From: Thelocarpon superellum
Lineage: Eukaryota
DNA: 20,000 nt
Direction of reading: 5' to 3'
Assembly: GCA_026025795.1 (NCBI GenBank)
Contig: JAPEUG010000033.1
Coordinates: forward strand, 57,540 to 77,539
Part shown: positions 3,667-18,291 of the stretch, piece by piece
Position numbering within the stretch: position 1 is the first letter of the stretch
Layout of the letters: every line of letters starts with the position of its first letter
Made by a program: the position numbers and the translations under genes
Notes under the pieces: model-generated
What the model saw: the letters and a program-made list of their open reading frames with translations, nothing else
Told to the model about the DNA's origin: nothing
Database searches by the model: none

Positions 3667-4691
3667 TCATGGCATCACTTCCGTCGCTGGGTCCTTCCAC
3701 CGTCCTTCTGCTCGGCGAATCAGCTCTTCGTAGAGCGTCCAGGCCAGCGCCGAACTCAGCGCTTTACGTGCCATGCGGAGGCCCAGCCCGTCAAACAGCG
3801 AGCGGACGCCGTCTTCCTGGACCATGATCCGTGCCGCCTTGGCCATGTTCTGGTAGCGTTGGGGCATTAGCTGCAGGCGGGTCTTGATGGCGTCAAACGG
3901 GTTGGTCATGGCCGTTGCAATGCCCGCGGCAACGGCGCCGGAAAGAAAATTGATGCCGGCCGAGGTCATTCCACTCATGTTGGACTCGATGGCCGCGGAC
4001 ACGGGTGTCGTCTGTGACAAAATGCTCAATCGCTTCTTGCTCTCTTCGTAACACAGCACGTATAGCCCAGCATATGGCGCGTCTCGGGCCGCCGTGGCCC
4101 CAAAGCCAGAGAAGAAGCCTCGCAGGCCTTCGTGCCGCAGGATGTCGGATCCAGCCCCCCAAAGGGAGCGATAGGCGTAATAGCTAGACTCATAGCGGAC
4201 CTTGATGACAGTGATGGGCATCATCATGAATCCCACCAACGCTCTCGCCATCGCTCCCGTCGTCAGGTTTGCCAACTTGGACAACTTTGGCAGCGATGAC
4301 GAGCTATGTGGGGTGCCCAGGTCCATACCATCGGCCGCGACGAGGCCGGATCGGGCCACATATTGCCGTAGCGAATTCAAGCCGGAGAAATAGAAGGCGG
4401 AGCCAATCCCCGTGCGCAGAGCCGATGGCAGAGTCCCCCGCCACAGCTGCCGTAGCGGGCTCGGTCCATGGGCAATGACGCGGATCGTCTGGAGCAAGGA
4501 GTCGGAGCGCGATTGCTGGACCCGCGTCTTGAGGAGATCCGCGGGCTGGAGCAGGACGGCGGACAAGACGCCCGAGCTCAGCCCTGCGGCAAAATGGAAG
4601 GCTAGAGGTAGCGTCAGTCAGGTTGTCAATCTTTCATAGCATGGCCTTCCCTACTCGATGGCGCATTTCGACGTGGGGCATCGCTTGGCAT
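3667..4691 (-). CDS. HEM25: Mitochondrial glycine carrier (SLC25A38/Hem25 family), ~323 aa; exons 4691-4655 and 4601-3667
   Basis: Three carrier signatures ([24 protein letters not shown]) plus subfamily motifs [19 protein letters not shown] and [10 protein letters not shown]. Intron 4602-4654 (GTAGGG..CTGAC..TAG) gives the N-terminus [32 protein letters not shown]. Confidence 0.92.
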
Positions 4692-5339: not shown

Positions 5340-7165
5340 ATGACCGCCCAGGCCATCATGATCGGCGAGACCATCGCCAACATGAAGAGAGCCATCTTCC
5401 GCAATGCTGATGGTATGAGATCTGATGTGGGATTCGCGTGTCATGCTGACGACGTCGTGTAGCCTCGGACTCGGAGGATTCAATCCATCAGCCCACGAAT
5501 CGGGGAAACAAGCTCAAACGCAAATCAAAATTCGTACGAGAAGGCCAGCTCGATCTTCCCAATGGGCCCCGCGTCTATCGACGGGTGAGGATCTGCAACT
5601 CTCCATGCCTTGTGAAGGCTGGCACTGACCTCGGTCGCAGAAGATCGAACACGCCGGATACAAACGTTACATCATCAGCCGGAATCCTCGGCGCTTCGAT
5701 CGATACGGCGATGAATTGGAGGATGACGAGATTGATGAGGAGGCCGACTCGATGGCGGCCGAAGAAAATCCGTATGCCGACATACATCTCGAGCGTGAGT
5801 AATACCCATCTACATACTTTGAACGCGGCTGACGGGACTTCTCCAGATATCCTTGCACCGCTCACATCCGCGGCCGAGCTACCGGAGCACCCGACGTTGT
5901 CGATCCCGTACCTGTCAACCGCATTGACGGATATGACGCGACAGGCGGGAGAGCTAGTGCACAAGGAGCGGGCGACGCTGTGGCGGACCAAACAGCTTTT
6001 CACCAGATTTCGGGACGAGACGTGGATTCCTTGCGGCGCACTAGAGACCGAGGACGATCTCGCTCTGTTTGGCAACCCGTATGAGTCTGCTCCGCCAGCT
6101 CAATTTGTGTCAGTGGGTGGGGGAGAGCCGGCCGCATTGAGCAATGGGGCGGCAGCGACTGTCCAGGACGCACCAAATGGTGAGGTCAAGATGACTGACG
6201 CTGTCGAGCCGAGACCGACGACGGAGCTCCCGGTGACGACGGGGGAGATTGGAGACGAGTCAAAAGAGCTTGAGGAGCCCCAAGACGCTCAGATGGATGG
6301 CGTCGAGAGCGAGAAGGAGGATCAGGCGGATGCAGTGGAAAGTCAGACGTCCGACGCAGCGCCTACACGACACGTGCACGATGAGGACGGAGACCGAGCC
6401 GAAAATAATGCCATGGATGCCATGGAGGTCACCCAATCCCGTGAGCAGCCGCCTACGGCAAGCTCCGAAGCAGAGGCCAACGGCGAGGGTCAAGTCGAAG
6501 GCGAAGGCAAAGGTGATAAAAAAGGTGAAGATGAAGGCGGAGGTGAGGGCAGGAACGCCAAGGAGGGGAAAGAAAAAGGCGAGGACGAAGAGGAAGGCGA
6601 AGGAGAAGGAGAAGGCGAAGGAGAAGGAGAAGGAGAAGGAGAAGGCAAAGGTGAAGGCGAAGACGAAGAAGCCGATTCGCAGCCAGCGCCACACCGGATG
6701 ACGACGCGAGCGCAAGCGCAAGCAGCCTCGGACCCAACGCCATCAGCGCGAACGGGGTCGCCCTCCTCCGACCCGTCCATTCCCACCGTGCACCCCTTCT
6801 TCCTCGTGCCCGCGAGCGCCATTCCCGACCGAGACTTTGGGCTGCCAGCCAATGAAGCGGAAGAAACGCGCCGTCTGCTGCTCTCGTACGTGCAAAAGCA
6901 AGAAGAAGTGTGCCGCGGCTCCGAGCGACTCTACACGAGCCTCCTGACGGCCGACCGACTACGCAAGACGGTGCTCCGCTGGGCCAAGGCCGAGGCGCAC
7001 GTGGGCGAGATGAGCGATGGTGAGGACTGGTACGACAAGGACGAGTGGGGTCTAGATGAGGATCTGAAGAAGGGGCACGAGGAAGACGACGACGACGCTG
7101 GTGCTGGTAACGGCACAGGTACCCAGGGTAAGAAAACCCGGGGCCGGCGCGCCGCCAATAACTAG
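5340..7165 (+). CDS. RXT2: Rxt2-like subunit of the Rpd3L histone deacetylase complex, ~555 aa; exons 5340-5412, 5463-5584, 5641-5794, 5847-7165
   Basis: Three canonical introns restore one frame: MTAQAIMIGETIANMKRAI..SDSEDSIHQPTNRGNKLKRK..KIEHAGYKRYII..EENPYADIHLEHILAPLTSAAELPEHP (RXT2_N-type motifs TNRGNKL and ENPY..L.PL), with a C-terminal HVGEMSDGEDWYDKDEWGL block. Confidence 0.88.
6593..6661 (+). repeat. (GAAGGM)n hexamer repeat encoding a (Glu-Gly)n tract in RXT2
   Basis: gaaggc gaagga gaagga gaaggc.. translates as EGEGEGEGEGEGEGEGKGEGE. Confidence 0.85.
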
Positions 7166-11056: not shown

Positions 11057-13784
11057 TCATGCCCGCGTCGCCGGCAGCGCATAGCTCCTATCCCACTTGA
11101 TCTCTTGGGACATGGCGAGATCGAGCAGCCACTCCGTCTTCACCACTCGGGGCACCATCCCCTGTGTCGTGGCCTGCTGGCAAAAGTTCTCTGCCACCTC
11201 TCGCTGCTCTGCCGTGTCGCTACTCAGCAGATAGACCGCTTCGGGTTGATCCTCGTCCGAACTCGGCCCCGCTCCGCCCTCCTTCTCCATGCGCATCGAC
11301 ACGATCCCACGGCGCGGTCGGAATAGCACGCAGTGACCTCCGTTCGCCTCGATGATGGCCTTGTTCGTGTCGAAGCCTCCGTGCACCGCCTCCGTGCAGT
11401 AAATGGTGATCCCGCTGAGGAGACTTCGCTCGTTGACGCGTGCCCGCTGCACCGCCTCCTTCAGCCGGAAGCCAAATCGCTTCTCGGCCTTGACATCCTT
11501 CAGAAGGAATCGCTCGTCGGGCACCACTTCGTTCTCCTCCAGACACTCATCGACAAATTCCGTCGAGATGATGACAGGGGCATATGCAAGCGCCAGGAGG
11601 AACTTCTGCGTCCGCATGATGGCGGGCGCGGCCAGATGCGTGCATTTGCTCGGATCCTGCACGATCAAGATCCCCAGCTCCCGCAGTCGTTTCTTGCTTC
11701 CGTCAGCGACTTCTTTCACTCAGGACGCGAGTCCACATACCGTGTCATCTTCCTCCGTTTGTGGCTGGCCCACCCACTTCTGATAGCCAGTCAACAACAG
11801 CCTCATCTTGGGTGGTGGAAGCTTGGTCGTGCGTGGTCGCTTGACTTCTCTTCCGTCGTCAACATCCATCGCGTCCTCATCATCTGCCGACTGGTGGCTA
11901 AAGCTGCGCTTCGATCGATCACTCGACGCCTCAGCCGTCCTTCGCCCGCCCCAGATCACCCCACCCACCCGCTTCTTCTCCTTTTCGTATAGGGCGATAT
12001 CTGGGGCAAGGTCATGCAGTCGGGCCATGGCACGATCCTTGGCTCCGCGGCTCGAACCCGTGGTCGGCGTCTCGTTTTCCTTGCCAGTCACCCTCATTCT
12101 CGATGCCAGAGGGGTCTCGAACTGTCCAGGTTCGTCAAGACGTTGCCTTCGAGCTTTCTTGGGTCGAGCCTCATCACTGAGGTTAGAGCTCGAATGCAGA
12201 CCGGTTTGGTGCCTTGGGCTCGAGCTGGACACGCCGCCGTTGGCGAGAAGGGTCGAGGAGATATTCTCGTCCTTCCGATGCATCGCCCGCGAAGGCTCCG
12301 TGCCCTCGGCGTCGGGGCTCGAACCGTCACCCGGGAAGAAGAGCGCCTTCATGACATCACGATCAACCTGGGTCTGTCCGACAACCTCGCCAAGGTTGGT
12401 GCGCGCCGGGAAATGGTTGTATCGTGGATTCGTGAGGCTTTGGACGTCCCATTTGGCATAGCTCTCTTCCAGCCAAAGATGATTTACGAGGTGGATGTTC
12501 CACTCCCGGGCAGCATTGCATTTCTCGCTCTGGGATCGTGCGGTGATCAGGTGTGTGTTCTCGGGCGAGAGAGTCTTGGTAAAGGTGCCGCCGGCCGCCA
12601 CGATGAGATTCTCCAGGTAGAGACGAGCTTCCCCCTCGTAGTTCGAGACCGAGATACGATAGTCCTTAAATTCCGAAATGCCATGACGGGCGACGGGGTA
12701 GTGCAGGAGACGTCGAAAGGGGGATGTCCATACGTTGCTGGCGATCAGGTAGTAGAGCCAGGACAAGTTGCCCACGTCTTTGCCCGCCCGAGACGCCATC
12801 TCGTAATCCTTGCCTTCACGATAGTGACAGATCAGAACGTCGGCCGTGTGAACGCTCCCAGTGATGGAGCCCCTGCCATCGGTAACCAGGTCCTCAATGA
12901 CACCCCGGAGGTGGCTTCCCAATTCAAGATCGTGGGACAGCATCACCTTTTTCCGTTCAAACACGTCCAAGTCCTGACGTGGGCCACTCGAGGATGTGAT
13001 GTCGGGCCGGGTCGAGCTGGCACCAATAAGATGACTGCCTCGCGATGCAGCGACAGGGTCATGGGGAGCGGCAGTGGTCAGGTCTGGGTTGGGCAGCAGA
13101 TAGGGCGCTTCATCGATCCGCTTGCCAAGTTTCAGGCAGTCATCGAACCTGCAACGCGTCAGGAATCAAGACAACCTCGGCCAATTGGCATTTGCTCACC
13201 AGTGGGGCAAAACAGTCTTGCATGGGAGAGCCTTGATGATGGCCTTCTGACACTTTTCGTTGTCCTCAGTCAAGGCGACAATATGCGTGACCATCTTGGT
13301 CAGGCTCGCGGAATATTGGCCTCCCATGGCAAGCACGCCCCCAATGATGGCTTCCTTGTCGCCTTCCGGCAGGTCGACGCACGTGAGGGTGACGCCAGAG
13401 AAGAAGAGACGCGGGTCGGGGCTGTAGGGCCGCATTGGGGCCAGACGTTGCTTGGCTACGGAGGCGGTCACCCATGCGGGTTTGACGACCGAAACGAAGG
13501 CATCGAGCGCAGCGTGGTACTCCGGGAAGTCCGAGGTCATGGAAATGATGTGCGTCACGTCTTCGAGGTGGATCTTCCCGCCGCTCGACTCATTGGCTTC
13601 TTGGTTTGCGCCAAGCTCATTCAGAAGAATGACGAGCTGAGATCTGATCAGTTCGGAGCGGTGGATTAAAGAAGGGTGAAGGTACCTGTTCCGCCGCGTC
13701 GTCGGGCAATTCGTCGCTACGAACGATGTGGTACGTGACGTTCTCGAAAAGACGAGACGCGTCCCCGCCGTTGGCCGTCTGCAT
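11057..13784 (-). CDS. RTT107: Multi-BRCT DNA-damage scaffold Rtt107/Brc1, ~859 aa; exons 13784-13686, 13636-13200, 13148-11741, 11692-11057
   Basis: Four N-terminal BRCT-like repeats (VVKPAWVTAS, YSPDPRLFFSG, LPHWFDDCL, LLHYPV, HLVNHLWLEES) and a C-terminal tandem BRCT (CTHLAAPAIMRTQKFL, VKTEWLLDLAMSQ). Introns 13637-13685, 13149-13199 and 11693-11740 keep the frame. Confidence 0.9.
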
Positions 13785-14443: not shown

Positions 14444-15879
14444 ATGTCTACCGATCGATTCCTTGTACACGAGCATAGAATTCCCGGTCAGCATGTCCGG
14501 GAATACCCCGCGGCAACAGCCCATAAGCAAGAAGACGTGCTCTATCTAGAGATAAAGCAATATTCTCCCCGGAGTAATGCGAGTCCCTCGCCGGGAGATG
14601 TCACCATCATCGGAGCGCACGCCAATGGGTTCCCCAAAGTGAGTCCCCGACCATGGCGATAGGGCGAGGATGACCAACAAGGCGAATAGGAGCTCTACGA
14701 ACCGCTTTGGGACGAGCTGCTAGCCCGCGCAGAGACCAACGGCTTCAAGATCCGAGACATTTGGATCGCCGACGTGGCTCACCAGGGATATAGTGGGGTG
14801 GTCAACGAGAACGTGCTGGGAAACGACCGTAAGGAAACGCACCGACCACGCAGCCTACGCAGGCATTGACAAGCGCCACAGCATCTTGGCACGACCACGC
14901 GCGCGACTTGCTGCACATGATCAACCACTTCCGAGATCAGATGCCGCGGCCGCTGATGGGCATTGGACACAGCATGGGCGCAGCGAGTCTCGCCACGCTG
15001 TCGCTGATGCACCCGCGGCTCCTGACCAGCCTCATCCTCCTCGACCCCGTCATCTTCGAGATCGAGCACATCCCCGCGCGGCCCGACTTCGCCATCATGT
15101 CTACCTTCCGCCGAGACCGCTGGCCGTCGCGCCCGGAAGCCGAAGCCAGCTTCCGCAAGAGTCCAGTCTACAAGCGCTGGGACAAGCGGGTACTGGATCG
15201 GTGGATCCAGCATGGGCTCCGCGAGCTACCCACGGCCATCTACCCCGACGCCGGGCCCGGCCTTAGCTCCAGCTCCAGCTCCACACAGGGCATCACACTA
15301 CGAACAGCGCTCCCGCAAGAACTGCACTCCTATTCACGACTAAAGGTCCTCCCAACAGACAGCCAAGGACTGGCCATCGTCGACCGGGACCGTTTTCCCG
15401 ATCTACCGAGCGGCAAGCTCGTCAAAGCCGCCGACTTCTACCGGCCAGAACCAGTCTGGATATCCGCAAACCTGCCCCACATCCGTCCAAGCGTGCTGTG
15501 GATATTCGGCGCCGAAAGTCCCATCTCCCCACCCATCACACAAGACGACAAGATGGCGCGCACGGGAACCGGAGTAGGTGGCAGCGGGGGCGCGGGCGAG
15601 GGGCGGGTGTCCAAGGTGGTTGTGGCGCGAGCGGGCCACCTGGTCGCGATGGAGGCCGTGGCGGCGTGTGCAGAGGCAAGCGCGGGGTGGATTGGGGCGG
15701 AGATGCGGCGGTGGCGGGCGCAGGAGGAGCAGTTCAAGGTGGCGTGGACGGACCGCCCGCACCGGGAGAAAATCACCGTGTCGGAGGAGTGGAAGGTGCG
15801 CATGGGCGGCGATCCGCGCGCGCGAGCGAAGAACGGCAAGAAGGCCGCGGAGAAGGGAGGCGCCAAGAGTAATCTCTGA
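14444..15879 (+). CDS. Alpha/beta hydrolase (Lpx1/MpaH-like fungal family), ~443 aa, C-terminal PTS1-like AKSNL; exons 14444-14638, 14690-14828, 14882-15879
   Basis: HANGFPK|ELYEPLW, IWIADVAHQG, PSWHDHARDL, nucleophile elbow GHSMG, LILLDPVI and catalytic His motif GHLVAME. Introns 14639-14689 and 14829-14881 are GT-AG. Confidence 0.9.
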
Positions 15880-16457: not shown

Positions 16458-17273
16458 TCATCCCCGTCCGGGGTTCCGACTCAATGCCAGATTTTTCCAA
16501 TGCGCGACCTCGCCTCGGAGCTCATCGATGGTGGACTCCAGCTCATCGAAGCGCTGCAGCTTCTTCTGTCGAGACTTTCGCGCCGCCAAGGTATTCCGCG
16601 CTCGCTTCACCGCCACGGTATCGTTCATGTCGTCCACGATGATGTCCGGGAGATCGCTGCCGCGCTTGCGCGCGCTGACTCCTGACACCGACGAATGCTT
16701 GCTCGTGGTGGGACGGCCGCCGTGCGGAGAGTGTCGGGGCGACGACCGTTGACGAGTGGCGGGTGCGGCGATGGCGCACGAGGTTTGCTCGTACAAATCG
16801 CCCGTGGTAGTCGGGGGCGACCCGTCCGTCTCCGCCGTGGTGCCAGGGAACAAGGAGAACCAGTTGTCGGTGCCAATCTCCGTATCGCCCGTGTGGAACA
16901 TGGGGGACGTCTCGAAGCTCTCGTTGACGTCGGGCGAATCAAAGATGGAAGGCGACGTGAGGTTGGTGAAGGCCGTCGACGGGGGCGCCGAGGCTTGCGG
17001 GTCCCTCACCAAGTCCTTGGGCGACACGGTGCCCTGGTTGTGCGACGTCGACGACGCCGTCGACTCGTTGATGCTCGTAAAATGAGGCGACGACAAGTCC
17101 GCGTCGAAGAGCGGCGCGTCGGACGTGAAGTCCTCGGCGTAGCGGGCGGAGAGGTCGAAGAGGCTATGCATATCTGGGGGCGAGAGCATCGCGGTTAGCG
17201 TCGACGCATTGGAAATGGAGGACGACATGGCGGCGGGATCCATCGTACCTTGAGGCATGGTGGAAGTAGCCAT
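16458..17273 (-). CDS. cpc-1: Cross-pathway control bZIP transcription factor CPC-1/CpcA (Gcn4 ortholog), AUG-initiated form ~246 aa; exons 17273-17249 and 17173-16458
   Basis: Basic region/zipper DTVAVKRARNTLAARKSRQKKLQRFDELESTIDELRGEVAHWK, activation motif DNWFSLFP, and GTVSPKDL / SAPPSTAFTNLTSPS blocks. Start GCC-ATG-G at 17273. Intron 17174-17248 (GTACGA..GCTAAC..CAG). Confidence 0.95.
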   Translation of the reverse strand: MATSTMPQGTMDPAAMSSSISNASTLTAMLSPPDMHSLFDLSARYAEDFTSDAPLFDADLSSPHFTSINESTASSTSHNQGTVSPKDLVRDPQASAPPSTAFTNLTSPSIFDSPDVNESFETSPMFHTGDTEIGTDNWFSLFPGTTAETDGSPPTTTGDLYEQTSCAIAAPATRQRSSPRHSPHGGRPTTSKHSSVSGVSARKRGSDLPDIIVDDMNDTVAVKRARNTLAARKSRQKKLQRFDELESTIDELRGEVAHWKNLALSRNPGRG

Positions 17274-17948
17274 GGCGTCCGGTGCGTGCGGGTTCGCGTG
17301 CGACAGACGCACGTTACCAGTGCTGTTGCTGGCGAACAGCGGAACCTGCGGGCGAGAGCTGGTGTGCGGCGACGGGGCCGACTGCGGGAGCGCCGCGGTG
17401 GAGGACGGGGCCGAGGACGCGTAGAACGACGGCTTCGGGCCGGGTGGACTGTACCGATGGAGATGGAAAGACGTAGACGAGGGGTGGTGCCCGGAACCTT
17501 GGATGATCGTCGTCACTCTTGGGTTCTGCGCAGACGACGCAGAGGATTGAGAAGAGTTTCGTCGAAGCGGACCGCTAGGGGTCGCGAAGGTAGAGCTAGG
17601 GCTGGTCCGAGACGCGGGCGTCACCAGCTCGGCCGAGTGACGGGCGGAGCGCGGTGCGGCGGGATTCGTCGCTGTGGGGAACAGCACGAAGTCGGACGGG
17701 AGGGACGAGTTGAAGTCGGGTTGCGTTGCCGGCGTATGCCTGTGGAGAAGTGGGGGTTGGGAAAGCCATGGCTGTTGGTTATCCGTGGTGAACGACGGGG
17801 AAGTCGTCGTGGAGGTAGTGGAGTGGAGTGCGTTGGACGCGTAATGCGGAATGGTGTGGGCGCGGGGAGGTCCTGGTAAGAGGATCTCCGGAGCAAAGGG
17901 TGGGAGTGGAGTGGGGTCGAGGAACCGAAAGGACTCGAAAGAGGCAAT
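17274..17948 (-). CDS. cpc-1: Putative non-AUG (AUU)-initiated in-frame N-terminal extension of CPC-1, ~225 aa
   Basis: No stop and no in-frame ATG from 17996 to 17274. ATT at 17948-17946 in the context GAC AAG ATT GCC. Encodes SDFVLFP, RVTTII, FYASSAPSS and RPQVPLF blocks. Confidence 0.75.
17596..17769 (-). other. cpc-1 uORF2 (57 aa, MAFPTPTSPQAYAG..VSDQP*), out of frame with CPC-1
   Basis: The only ATG between uORF1 and the main AUG; strong context AGCC-ATG-G; ends at TAG 17598-17596. Confidence 0.85.
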
Positions 17949-17996
17949 CTTGTCTGACGGGGAGACAAGTGCTGGGTAGAAGTAGGGAGCAGACGG

Positions 17997-18014
17997 TCAG
18001 AAGGCAGCCATCAT
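17997..18014 (-). other. cpc-1 uORF1 (ATG ATG GCT GCC TTC TGA; MMAAF*)
   Basis: Short 5'-most uORF downstream of the CT-rich box, matching the reinitiation-permissive uORF1 of GCN4/cpc-1 leaders. Confidence 0.85.
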
Positions 18015-18065
18015 GCGTGGTGTCTTCTGAGGGTTATCGGTTCTGTGCGTGTGATGGGATGGATG

Positions 18066-18125
18066 GAGAGAGAAGAGAAGAGAGAAAGCCTTCAGGCAGA
18101 CGTGAGCGATCAGGCAGGTATTATA
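18066..18125 (-). promoter_or_regulatory. cpc-1 core promoter: TATAATA (18125-18119) followed by a CT-rich box (18087-18066)
   Basis: An AT-rich TATA-like element in GC-rich DNA, then a pyrimidine tract typical of fungal transcription start regions. Confidence 0.6.
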
Positions 18126-18270: not shown

Positions 18271-18291
18271 ATTGGCTAGAGAGTGAGTCAT
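18271..18291 (-). promoter_or_regulatory. CPRE/GCRE ATGACTCAC (18291-18283) next to a CCAAT box (18275-18271)
   Basis: Exact TGACTCA core about 160 bp upstream of the cpc-1 TATA-like element. Confidence 0.65.

Follow-up and report, generated by a model that had tools for sequence, protein, structure and literature searches.

CPC1/Gcn4 is the master regulator of the fungal amino-acid starvation response, and in Saccharomyces cerevisiae its gene, GCN4, has four upstream open reading frames (uORFs). For filamentous ascomycetes, Ivanov et al. (2017, mBio, PMC5487733) reported, from Neurospora crassa and 100 Pezizomycotina, that CPC1 can acquire an N-terminal extension that is initiated at near-cognate codons and bypasses uORF2. 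Here, the leader of the cpc-1 gene was analyzed in a 20,000-nucleotide stretch of the Thelocarpon superellum genome (assembly GCA_026025795.1, contig JAPEUG010000033.1, positions 57,540 to 77,539 of the forward strand). This whole stretch is referred to as the window; all coordinates are counted from its first nucleotide, and the gene lies on its minus strand. The original prediction for this DNA, made from the sequence alone, had described a hidden extension of CPC1 running through the leader and had correctly cited the Pezizomycotina precedent. Since the phenomenon was published in 2017, the extension is not hidden if that is taken to mean unknown. Our analysis favors, with a probability of about 0.8, the reading that this leader encodes an AUG-less extension in the CPC1 frame and that near-cognate starts upstream of uORF2 would give rise to extended isoforms.

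The closest described system is that of Ivanov et al. In Pezizomycotina cpc-1 leaders, uORF1 comprises 3–6 codons and uORF2 35–70 codons, stops included, with uORF2 in the −1 frame, and the two are described as acting like GCN4 uORF1 and uORF4. Three near-cognate codons are presented as deeply conserved, namely NCC6 (CUG), NCC7 (AUU), and NCC8 (ACG), and NCC1–5 as only sporadically conserved. NCC6 and NCC7 are found in about three quarters of the species and are thus not obligatory; a minority clade, mostly Dothideomycetes in the Fig. S2 table, has neither. In N. crassa, NCC5–8 initiate in vitro, their mutation removes specific products in cell extracts, and in-vivo ribosome footprints are found above the AUG in the CPC1 frame. 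The cpc-1 genes differ in this respect from GCN4 and the other Saccharomycotina homologs, which are reported there to be without an in-frame N-terminal extension. The same authors draw an analogy with mammalian C/EBP alpha and beta, which are also bZIP proteins and whose N-terminal isoforms arise through start choice and eIF2 status. However, most C/EBP isoforms are shortened, being made from AUGs downstream of a short uORF, whereas CPC1 is lengthened by non-AUG starts upstream of an inhibitory uORF.

At the window locus, an open frame of 512 codons extends on the minus strand from 17996 to 16461, with its stop at 16458–16460. In this frame, ATG first occurs at 17273 (residue 242), in the context GACGCCATGG, and opens the main ORF (16458..17273, minus strand), which encodes 271 aa followed by a stop. 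The 241 codons upstream of it contain no ATG and no stop, as originally noted; the open frame is bounded on its 5' side by the in-frame stop at 17997–17999, which is the TGA of uORF1. The basic region and leucine zipper of the bZIP domain occupy 16506..16610 on the minus strand, corresponding to residues 463–497, and match Pfam family PF07716 (bZIP_2) at 1.9e-7. Homologs are named "general control protein GCN4" or "cross-pathway control protein", which upholds the CPC-1/Gcn4 identity proposed earlier. By sequence, the locus represents cpc-1/GCN4, the cross-pathway control gene, from a filamentous ascomycete, and its closest database relatives are metagenome-assembled genomes (MAGs) of lichen-associated Lecanoromycetes type. 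The extension, in the main frame, covers 17274..17948 on the minus strand and contains 225 codons when counted from ATT 17948, the length given in the original prediction, or 171 from ACG 17786. The predicted isoforms are 271 aa (AUG), 442 aa (ACG 17786), and 496 aa (ATT 17948); the sizes first proposed for the AUG protein (about 246 aa) and the ATT-17948 isoform (about 471 aa) were each 25 residues off.

Two uORFs precede the main ORF. The first, ATGATGGCTGCCTTCTGA (MMAAF*, six codons including the stop; 17997..18014, minus strand), shares the frame of CPC1, and the second (57 aa plus stop, 58 codons; 17596..17769, minus strand) is in the −1 (+2) frame. The arrangement is thus like that of the Pezizomycotina cpc-1 leaders described by Ivanov et al., with two uORFs of the published sizes, uORF2 in the −1 frame, and a CPC1 frame that is open and free of ATG from upstream of uORF2 to the AUG. 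It also resembles S. cerevisiae GCN4 in its bZIP family and in combining a short uORF1 of the reinitiation-permissive kind with a last uORF of the inhibitory kind.

Each of the near-cognate codons listed in the original prediction is present in frame and in the context described. The 5'-most conserved one is an ATT at 17946..17948 (minus strand; residue Ile17), located 48 nt after the uORF1 stop in the context GACAAGATTG (−6 to +4), where −3 is A and +4 is G. The remaining ones lie within 17784..17885 (minus strand) and comprise ATC 17885 (G at −3), ATT 17852 (A at −3), ACG 17810, ACG 17807, and ACG 17786. The last of these is NCC8, and its context, TTCACCACGG, is the commonest one in the published Fig. 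S2 table (A at −3, G at +4). An extra in-frame near-cognate, AAG, is found at 17951, and GTG 17687 (Val104) is in frame yet downstream of the uORF2 AUG. Unlike most Pezizomycotina cpc-1 genes described by Ivanov et al., the window has neither NCC6 (CUG) nor NCC7 (AUU). At the NCC6 column it reads GGACCTCCC, with the codons CCC/GCC, compared with GGACCTCTG in its relatives, and its codon at the NCC7 column is ACC. Four lineage-specific near-cognate candidates (ACG 17810, ACG 17807, ATT 17852, and ATC 17885) are situated near the two lost codons.

The main evidence for the extension is comparative. A metagenome scan with an alignment of the extension only and the exact peptide FYASSAPSS returned 65 loci, which together with the window represent 55 distinct sequences. 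Three of these (L020, L033, and L043) were dropped, leaving 52 usable sequences (51 loci and the window) in 15 single-linkage clusters at 70% amino-acid identity. The extension is without stop or ATG in all 52. Between NCC8 and the first ATG, no stop occurs in the CPC1 frame, compared with 111 and 144 in the two alternative frames, and with the exception of the L043 fragment, no sequence has an ATG in frame before the FYASSAPSS motif. Ratios of nonsynonymous to synonymous substitution (dN/dS) were calculated by NG86 over 18 phylogenetically independent pairs, none including the window, and are given with bootstrap 95% ranges. From NCC8 (ACG) to the AUG, dN/dS in the CPC1 frame is 0.27 (0.25–0.29), and in the main ORF it is 0.18 (0.14–0.22); these values match those of the 2017 study (extension 0.285–0.348, main ORF 0.144). 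In shifted frames, the same two regions give 1.3–2.2. Where the extension overlaps uORF2, the CPC1 frame gives 0.41 (0.28–0.56) and the uORF2 frame 1.70 (1.17–2.80). Judged from these alignments, purifying selection acts on the CPC1 frame of the extension between NCC8 and the AUG. The frame conservation and the dN/dS below 1 to which the original prediction had looked were both found. It had also held that in-frame stops or frameshifts in close relatives would count against the extension: no stops were seen in the 52 usable sequences, and a frameshift was present in L020, one of the sequences set aside.

The window was additionally aligned, without protein guidance, with its nearest DNA relatives, L001 and L002 (about 52–56% protein identity). 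Mismatches at codon positions 1, 2, and 3 amount to 0.25, 0.21, and 0.41 in the extension and to 0.35, 0.28, and 0.57 in the main ORF, and every gap in the extension is a multiple of 3. In a moss metagenome (run X2), a near-identical strain lacks 6 nt at 17456 inside the extension, a deletion that preserves the frame. The same strain carries C>A at 17270, in the second codon of the main ORF. Given the dN/dS of 0.27, the multiple-of-3 indels, and the codon periodicity against the nearest relatives, an extended isoform encoded from ACG 17786 downstream is well supported at the sequence level.

The extension is also recognizable in protein searches. Among 1.84 billion representatives, 567 homologs were found at E ≤ 0.001, and among the 150 matches listed, the best stretch starts at query residue 212 or earlier in 55. 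With residues 1–241 only as the query, 21 proteins were obtained at E ≤ 0.001, all with bZIP domains; the best matches are annotated models of Thelocarpon, Sarcosagium, and Pleopsidium MAGs and of Glutinoglossum. A local phmmer search with nothing but the extension gave matches at E ≤ 1e-3 in 42 of the 168 retrieved homologs. An alignment of 19 proteins, picked for covering the extension, contains 14 invariant extension columns (T71, W77, D102, F103, L105, V161, S195, A196, P197, S199, P219, L220, F221, and S225), and the conserved short motifs are DFVLFP, QNPRV..IIQ, FYASSAPSS, and RPxVPLF. The motif islands singled out in the original prediction all occur in the translation; DFVLFP, RV..II, FYASSAPSS, and RPxVPLF are conserved among them, whereas ASFESFRF is not. 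In the predicted structure, residues 460–507 form the sole confident helix. The predicted local distance difference test (pLDDT) score is below 50 outside this bZIP helix, so there is no fold to search with, and the extension is probably disordered according to the model. Our guess is that it might supply additional activation-domain or stability motifs. Three database models of relatives (P0003, P0004, and P0005) include the extension and place a Met start at differing positions within or above it; the P0004 model begins with "MDKI..." exactly at the Ile17 site. These Met starts may be true ATGs or gene-model artifacts.

Start-codon conservation was compared column by column. Of the columns that separate uORF1 from uORF2, just four, namely Ile17, NCC6, NCC7, and NCC8, are near-cognate in at least 90% of sequences; the rest reach at most 34%. 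At the NCC8 column, all 52 sequences have ACG. At the NCC6 column, CTG occurs in 45 sequences and TTG in 5, the window being the sole exception among 51; at the NCC7 column (ATT 34, ATA 15, ATC 2), it is again the sole exception, among 52. The Ile17 column, represented in the window by ATT 17948, is ATT in 40 and ATA in 10 of 50 sequences, with A at −3 in all 50, in agreement with the conserved AUU context that the original prediction had proposed as a check. ATC is found at this column in 0 of 50, compared with 59% of the Ile codons elsewhere in these ORFs (384/648). It dominates at other conserved Ile columns and is avoided at NCC7 as it is at Ile17. Ile17 and NCC8 are separated by 144 to 165 nt; the eight lengths observed are each divisible by 3, and across loci this interval contains 0 in-frame stops, compared with 79 and 62 in the two alternative frames. 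Between the uORF1 stop and Ile17, the spacing (33–66 nt) falls in any frame (19/14/16). Since the former distances are all in frame and the latter are not, conservation of the frame begins at the Ile17 column. We consider the use of ATT 17948 as a start to be an even bet. The proposal of an isoform initiated there thus meets a mixed outcome: the AUU/AUA codon and its invariant −3 A are conserved, whereas the 54 codons leading to ACG 17786 are weakly constrained.

The geometry of uORF2 is similarly stable. Its AUG lies 17 nt past the A of ACG 17786 in the window, and across the 52 sequences this offset is 17, 20, and 23 nt in 32, 19, and 1 of them, respectively. The frame of uORF2 relative to CPC1 is +2 (equivalent to −1) in 52 of 52, and its length varies from 39 to 58 codons. 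A 47-nt island over NCC8 and the uORF2 AUG (17751–17797, minus strand) represents the best-conserved nucleotide stretch in the leader; it recurs with at least 88% identity in contigs of other organisms (two runs), with flanks that are dissimilar on both sides. The frame of uORF1 relative to CPC1, in comparison, is 0, 1, and 2 in 19, 14, and 16 of 49 sequences, and its in-frame position in the window is probably incidental. Readthrough of the uORF1 TGA-C into an AUG-initiated long form was considered as a conserved mechanism and rejected because of this variation. Structure-assisted initiation was also rejected: in 101 nt around and downstream of ATT 17948 and ACG 17786, RNA folding was not better than in shuffled sequences (z = 0.02 and 0.29, respectively).

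On the basis of the N. crassa experiments in the literature and of homology, we infer that initiation takes place at near-cognate codons and that uORF2 is thereby bypassed. The two uORFs of the leader would constitute a Gcn4-type reinitiation switch, in which most 40S subunits would translate uORF1 and then resume scanning. A minority of the subunits scanning or reinitiating past uORF1 would start at near-cognate codons before arriving at the uORF2 AUG. Ribosomes from these starts would cross the uORF2 region in the CPC1 frame, and the extended CPC1 would be exempt from the uORF2 block. Both of the conserved middle starts, CUG and AUU, have been lost in the lineage of the window, where the codons most likely to serve as starts are ACG 17786 and ATT 17948, giving the 442- and 496-aa forms.

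Several observations weigh against this reading. According to Ivanov et al., in-vivo reporter activity from the near-cognates of N. crassa is less than 1% of that from the AUG. The window itself has no near-cognate at either NCC6 or NCC7. Furthermore, FYASSAPSS lies inside the extension, so the metagenome loci were pre-selected for a conserved extension, and Eurotiomycete- and Dothideomycete-type sequences look under-represented, judging from start-codon contexts. Exceptions among the 55 distinct sequences number three. In L020, a 1.3-kb contig, the frame shifts between DFVLF and QNQRV; the 5' end of L033 is unrelated; and L043 consists of an isolated piece of the extension that lacks a bZIP domain. 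These may be assembly errors or pseudogene fragments. RNA over the leader is represented by one 151-nt contig (17883–18033), with identical coordinates in two metatranscriptome runs among the four runs compared; the two occurrences may be a single data set, and contigs cannot show the 5' end of a transcript. In a putative RNA run (X6), coverage was confined to 16923–17154 and short conserved islands. The open frame of the window, taken alone, is only marginally beyond chance. The G+C content of this open stretch is 64%, its other two frames contain 2 and 4 stops, and among 20,000 first-order Markov simulations, 6.4% were stop-free in frame 0 and 4.0% were without both stop and ATG. The significance of the frame therefore rests on the comparative data. 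Additionally, the alignments indicate weak amino-acid constraint between ATT 17948 and ACG 17786. The dN/dS of this interval is 0.71 (0.59–0.85), hardly distinguishable from the 0.77 (0.54–1.02) upstream of Ile17, and both values are pulled downwards by the protein-guided alignment. In this interval, no codon periodicity was seen between the window and L001 or L002. Since none of the three frames has a stop there in the window, the openness of the interval is uninformative at this locus.

These figures can also be read as indicating that the extension is real and starts only at ACG 17786, in which case the longest isoform would be 442 aa and the 54 upstream codons an untranslated open leader. 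The strong coding signal does set in at NCC8, with dN/dS changing there from a value near that above Ile17 to 0.27, and under the general GCN4 model only a few of the reinitiating 40S subunits would be expected to have acquired ternary complex by ATT 17948, only 48 nt past the uORF1 stop. However, an untranslated stretch sits poorly with a column that holds AUU or AUA preceded by a −3 A in all 50 sequences and at which AUC, elsewhere the commonest Ile codon, does not occur; nor does it fit with in-frame spacing to NCC8 over eight lengths and with stops found solely in the other two frames. In the work of Ivanov et al., moreover, NCC5 of N. crassa, an AUU upstream of NCC6 and a possible counterpart of Ile17, initiates in vitro. 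We regard initiation confined to ACG 17786 as rather unlikely. Alternatively, the CPC1 frame above the AUG could be translated through +1 (or −2) frameshifting out of uORF2. Ivanov et al. raised this possibility themselves, and it would be in keeping with the −1 frame of uORF2, which holds in all 52 sequences here as well as in all Pezizomycotina of their study. Such frameshifting would nevertheless not require four conserved near-cognate columns with Kozak-like contexts upstream of the uORF2 AUG, and the loss of specific products upon mutation of NCC5–8 in N. crassa extracts speaks against it. No conserved shift site was seen, although no systematic search for one was made, and we hold this mechanism to be improbable.

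It is more improbable still that the frame is untranslated, having arisen by chance in a G+C-rich leader and owing its conservation to constraints on the RNA or on uORF2. Chance openness of 4–6% in the simulations would permit this, the 17751–17797 island is conserved as nucleotides even in unrelated contigs, and dS is depressed in the leader (0.24–0.33, compared with 0.62 in the main ORF). However, dN/dS is low in the CPC1 frame only, with 0.27 compared with 1.3 and 2.0 in the shifted frames, that of uORF2 included. Constraints on uORF2 would also not account for invariant residues distant from it, such as FYASSAPSS and VPLF, and every indel is a multiple of 3.

The cpc-1 leader measures roughly 750–800 nt. 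Upstream of uORF1, a TATA-like box, TATAATA, can be read from the sequence at 18119..18125 (minus strand), followed by a CT-rich tract at about 18050–18090. These elements likely form the core promoter, which would place the transcription start upstream of uORF1. A perfect TGACTCA, the motif of Gcn4/CPC1-type response elements, is located at 18284..18290 (minus strand), about 160 nt upstream of the TATA-like box. TGACTCA occurs three times in the window, compared with 3.06 matches expected by chance, and is thus without statistical support; the position of this copy near the cpc-1 promoter could hint at an autoregulatory site. A bacterial promoter scan of the window yielded no match, and such a scan is irrelevant to fungal DNA. 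The genes flanking cpc-1 in the window are ordinary fungal genes. Pfam matches in neighboring frames include a mitochondrial carrier (3667–4617, minus strand), an RXT2-like N-terminal domain (5450–7165, plus strand), BRCT domains (11720–13165, minus strand), and an alpha/beta hydrolase (14833–15879, plus strand).

The extended cpc-1 architecture itself is already known from filamentous fungi. What is new here is modest: this lineage has lost NCC6 and NCC7, and an upstream AUU/AUA column is conserved. This column is conserved in 50 of 50 sequences, in contrast to the "sporadic" conservation of NCC1–5 in the text of Ivanov et al., of which NCC5 may correspond to Ile17. We tentatively suggest, at slightly less than even odds, that the Ile17 AUU/AUA is a fourth deeply conserved cpc-1 start and marks the 5' boundary of CPC1 coding in Sordariomycete-, Leotiomycete-, and Lecanoromycete-type fungi. 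This lineage, devoid of the CUG and AUU starts, would then make just two extended isoforms, the 496-aa and 442-aa forms, and compensation may come from the +4 G of its upstream AUU. In a listing of the literature from 2018 on concerning cpc-1/cpcA extensions, no treatment of a fourth conserved start is apparent. If the suggestion is true, the published three-codon picture would be revised, and this locus would offer a natural "two-start" variant for dissecting the roles of the isoforms.

The species list of the 2017 study contains no Lecanoromycetes- or Geoglossomycetes-type taxa, and the nearest protein relatives of the window belong to classes absent from it. The locus thus represents a lineage unsampled in that study, one in which the extension persists despite the loss of two of the three "deeply conserved" starts. 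As a lesson for annotation, a 271-aa AUG model of this gene would be incomplete. In the amino-acid starvation response of these fungi, the extended CPC1 isoforms would evade the uORF2 block, the defining feature of the textbook Gcn4 switch.

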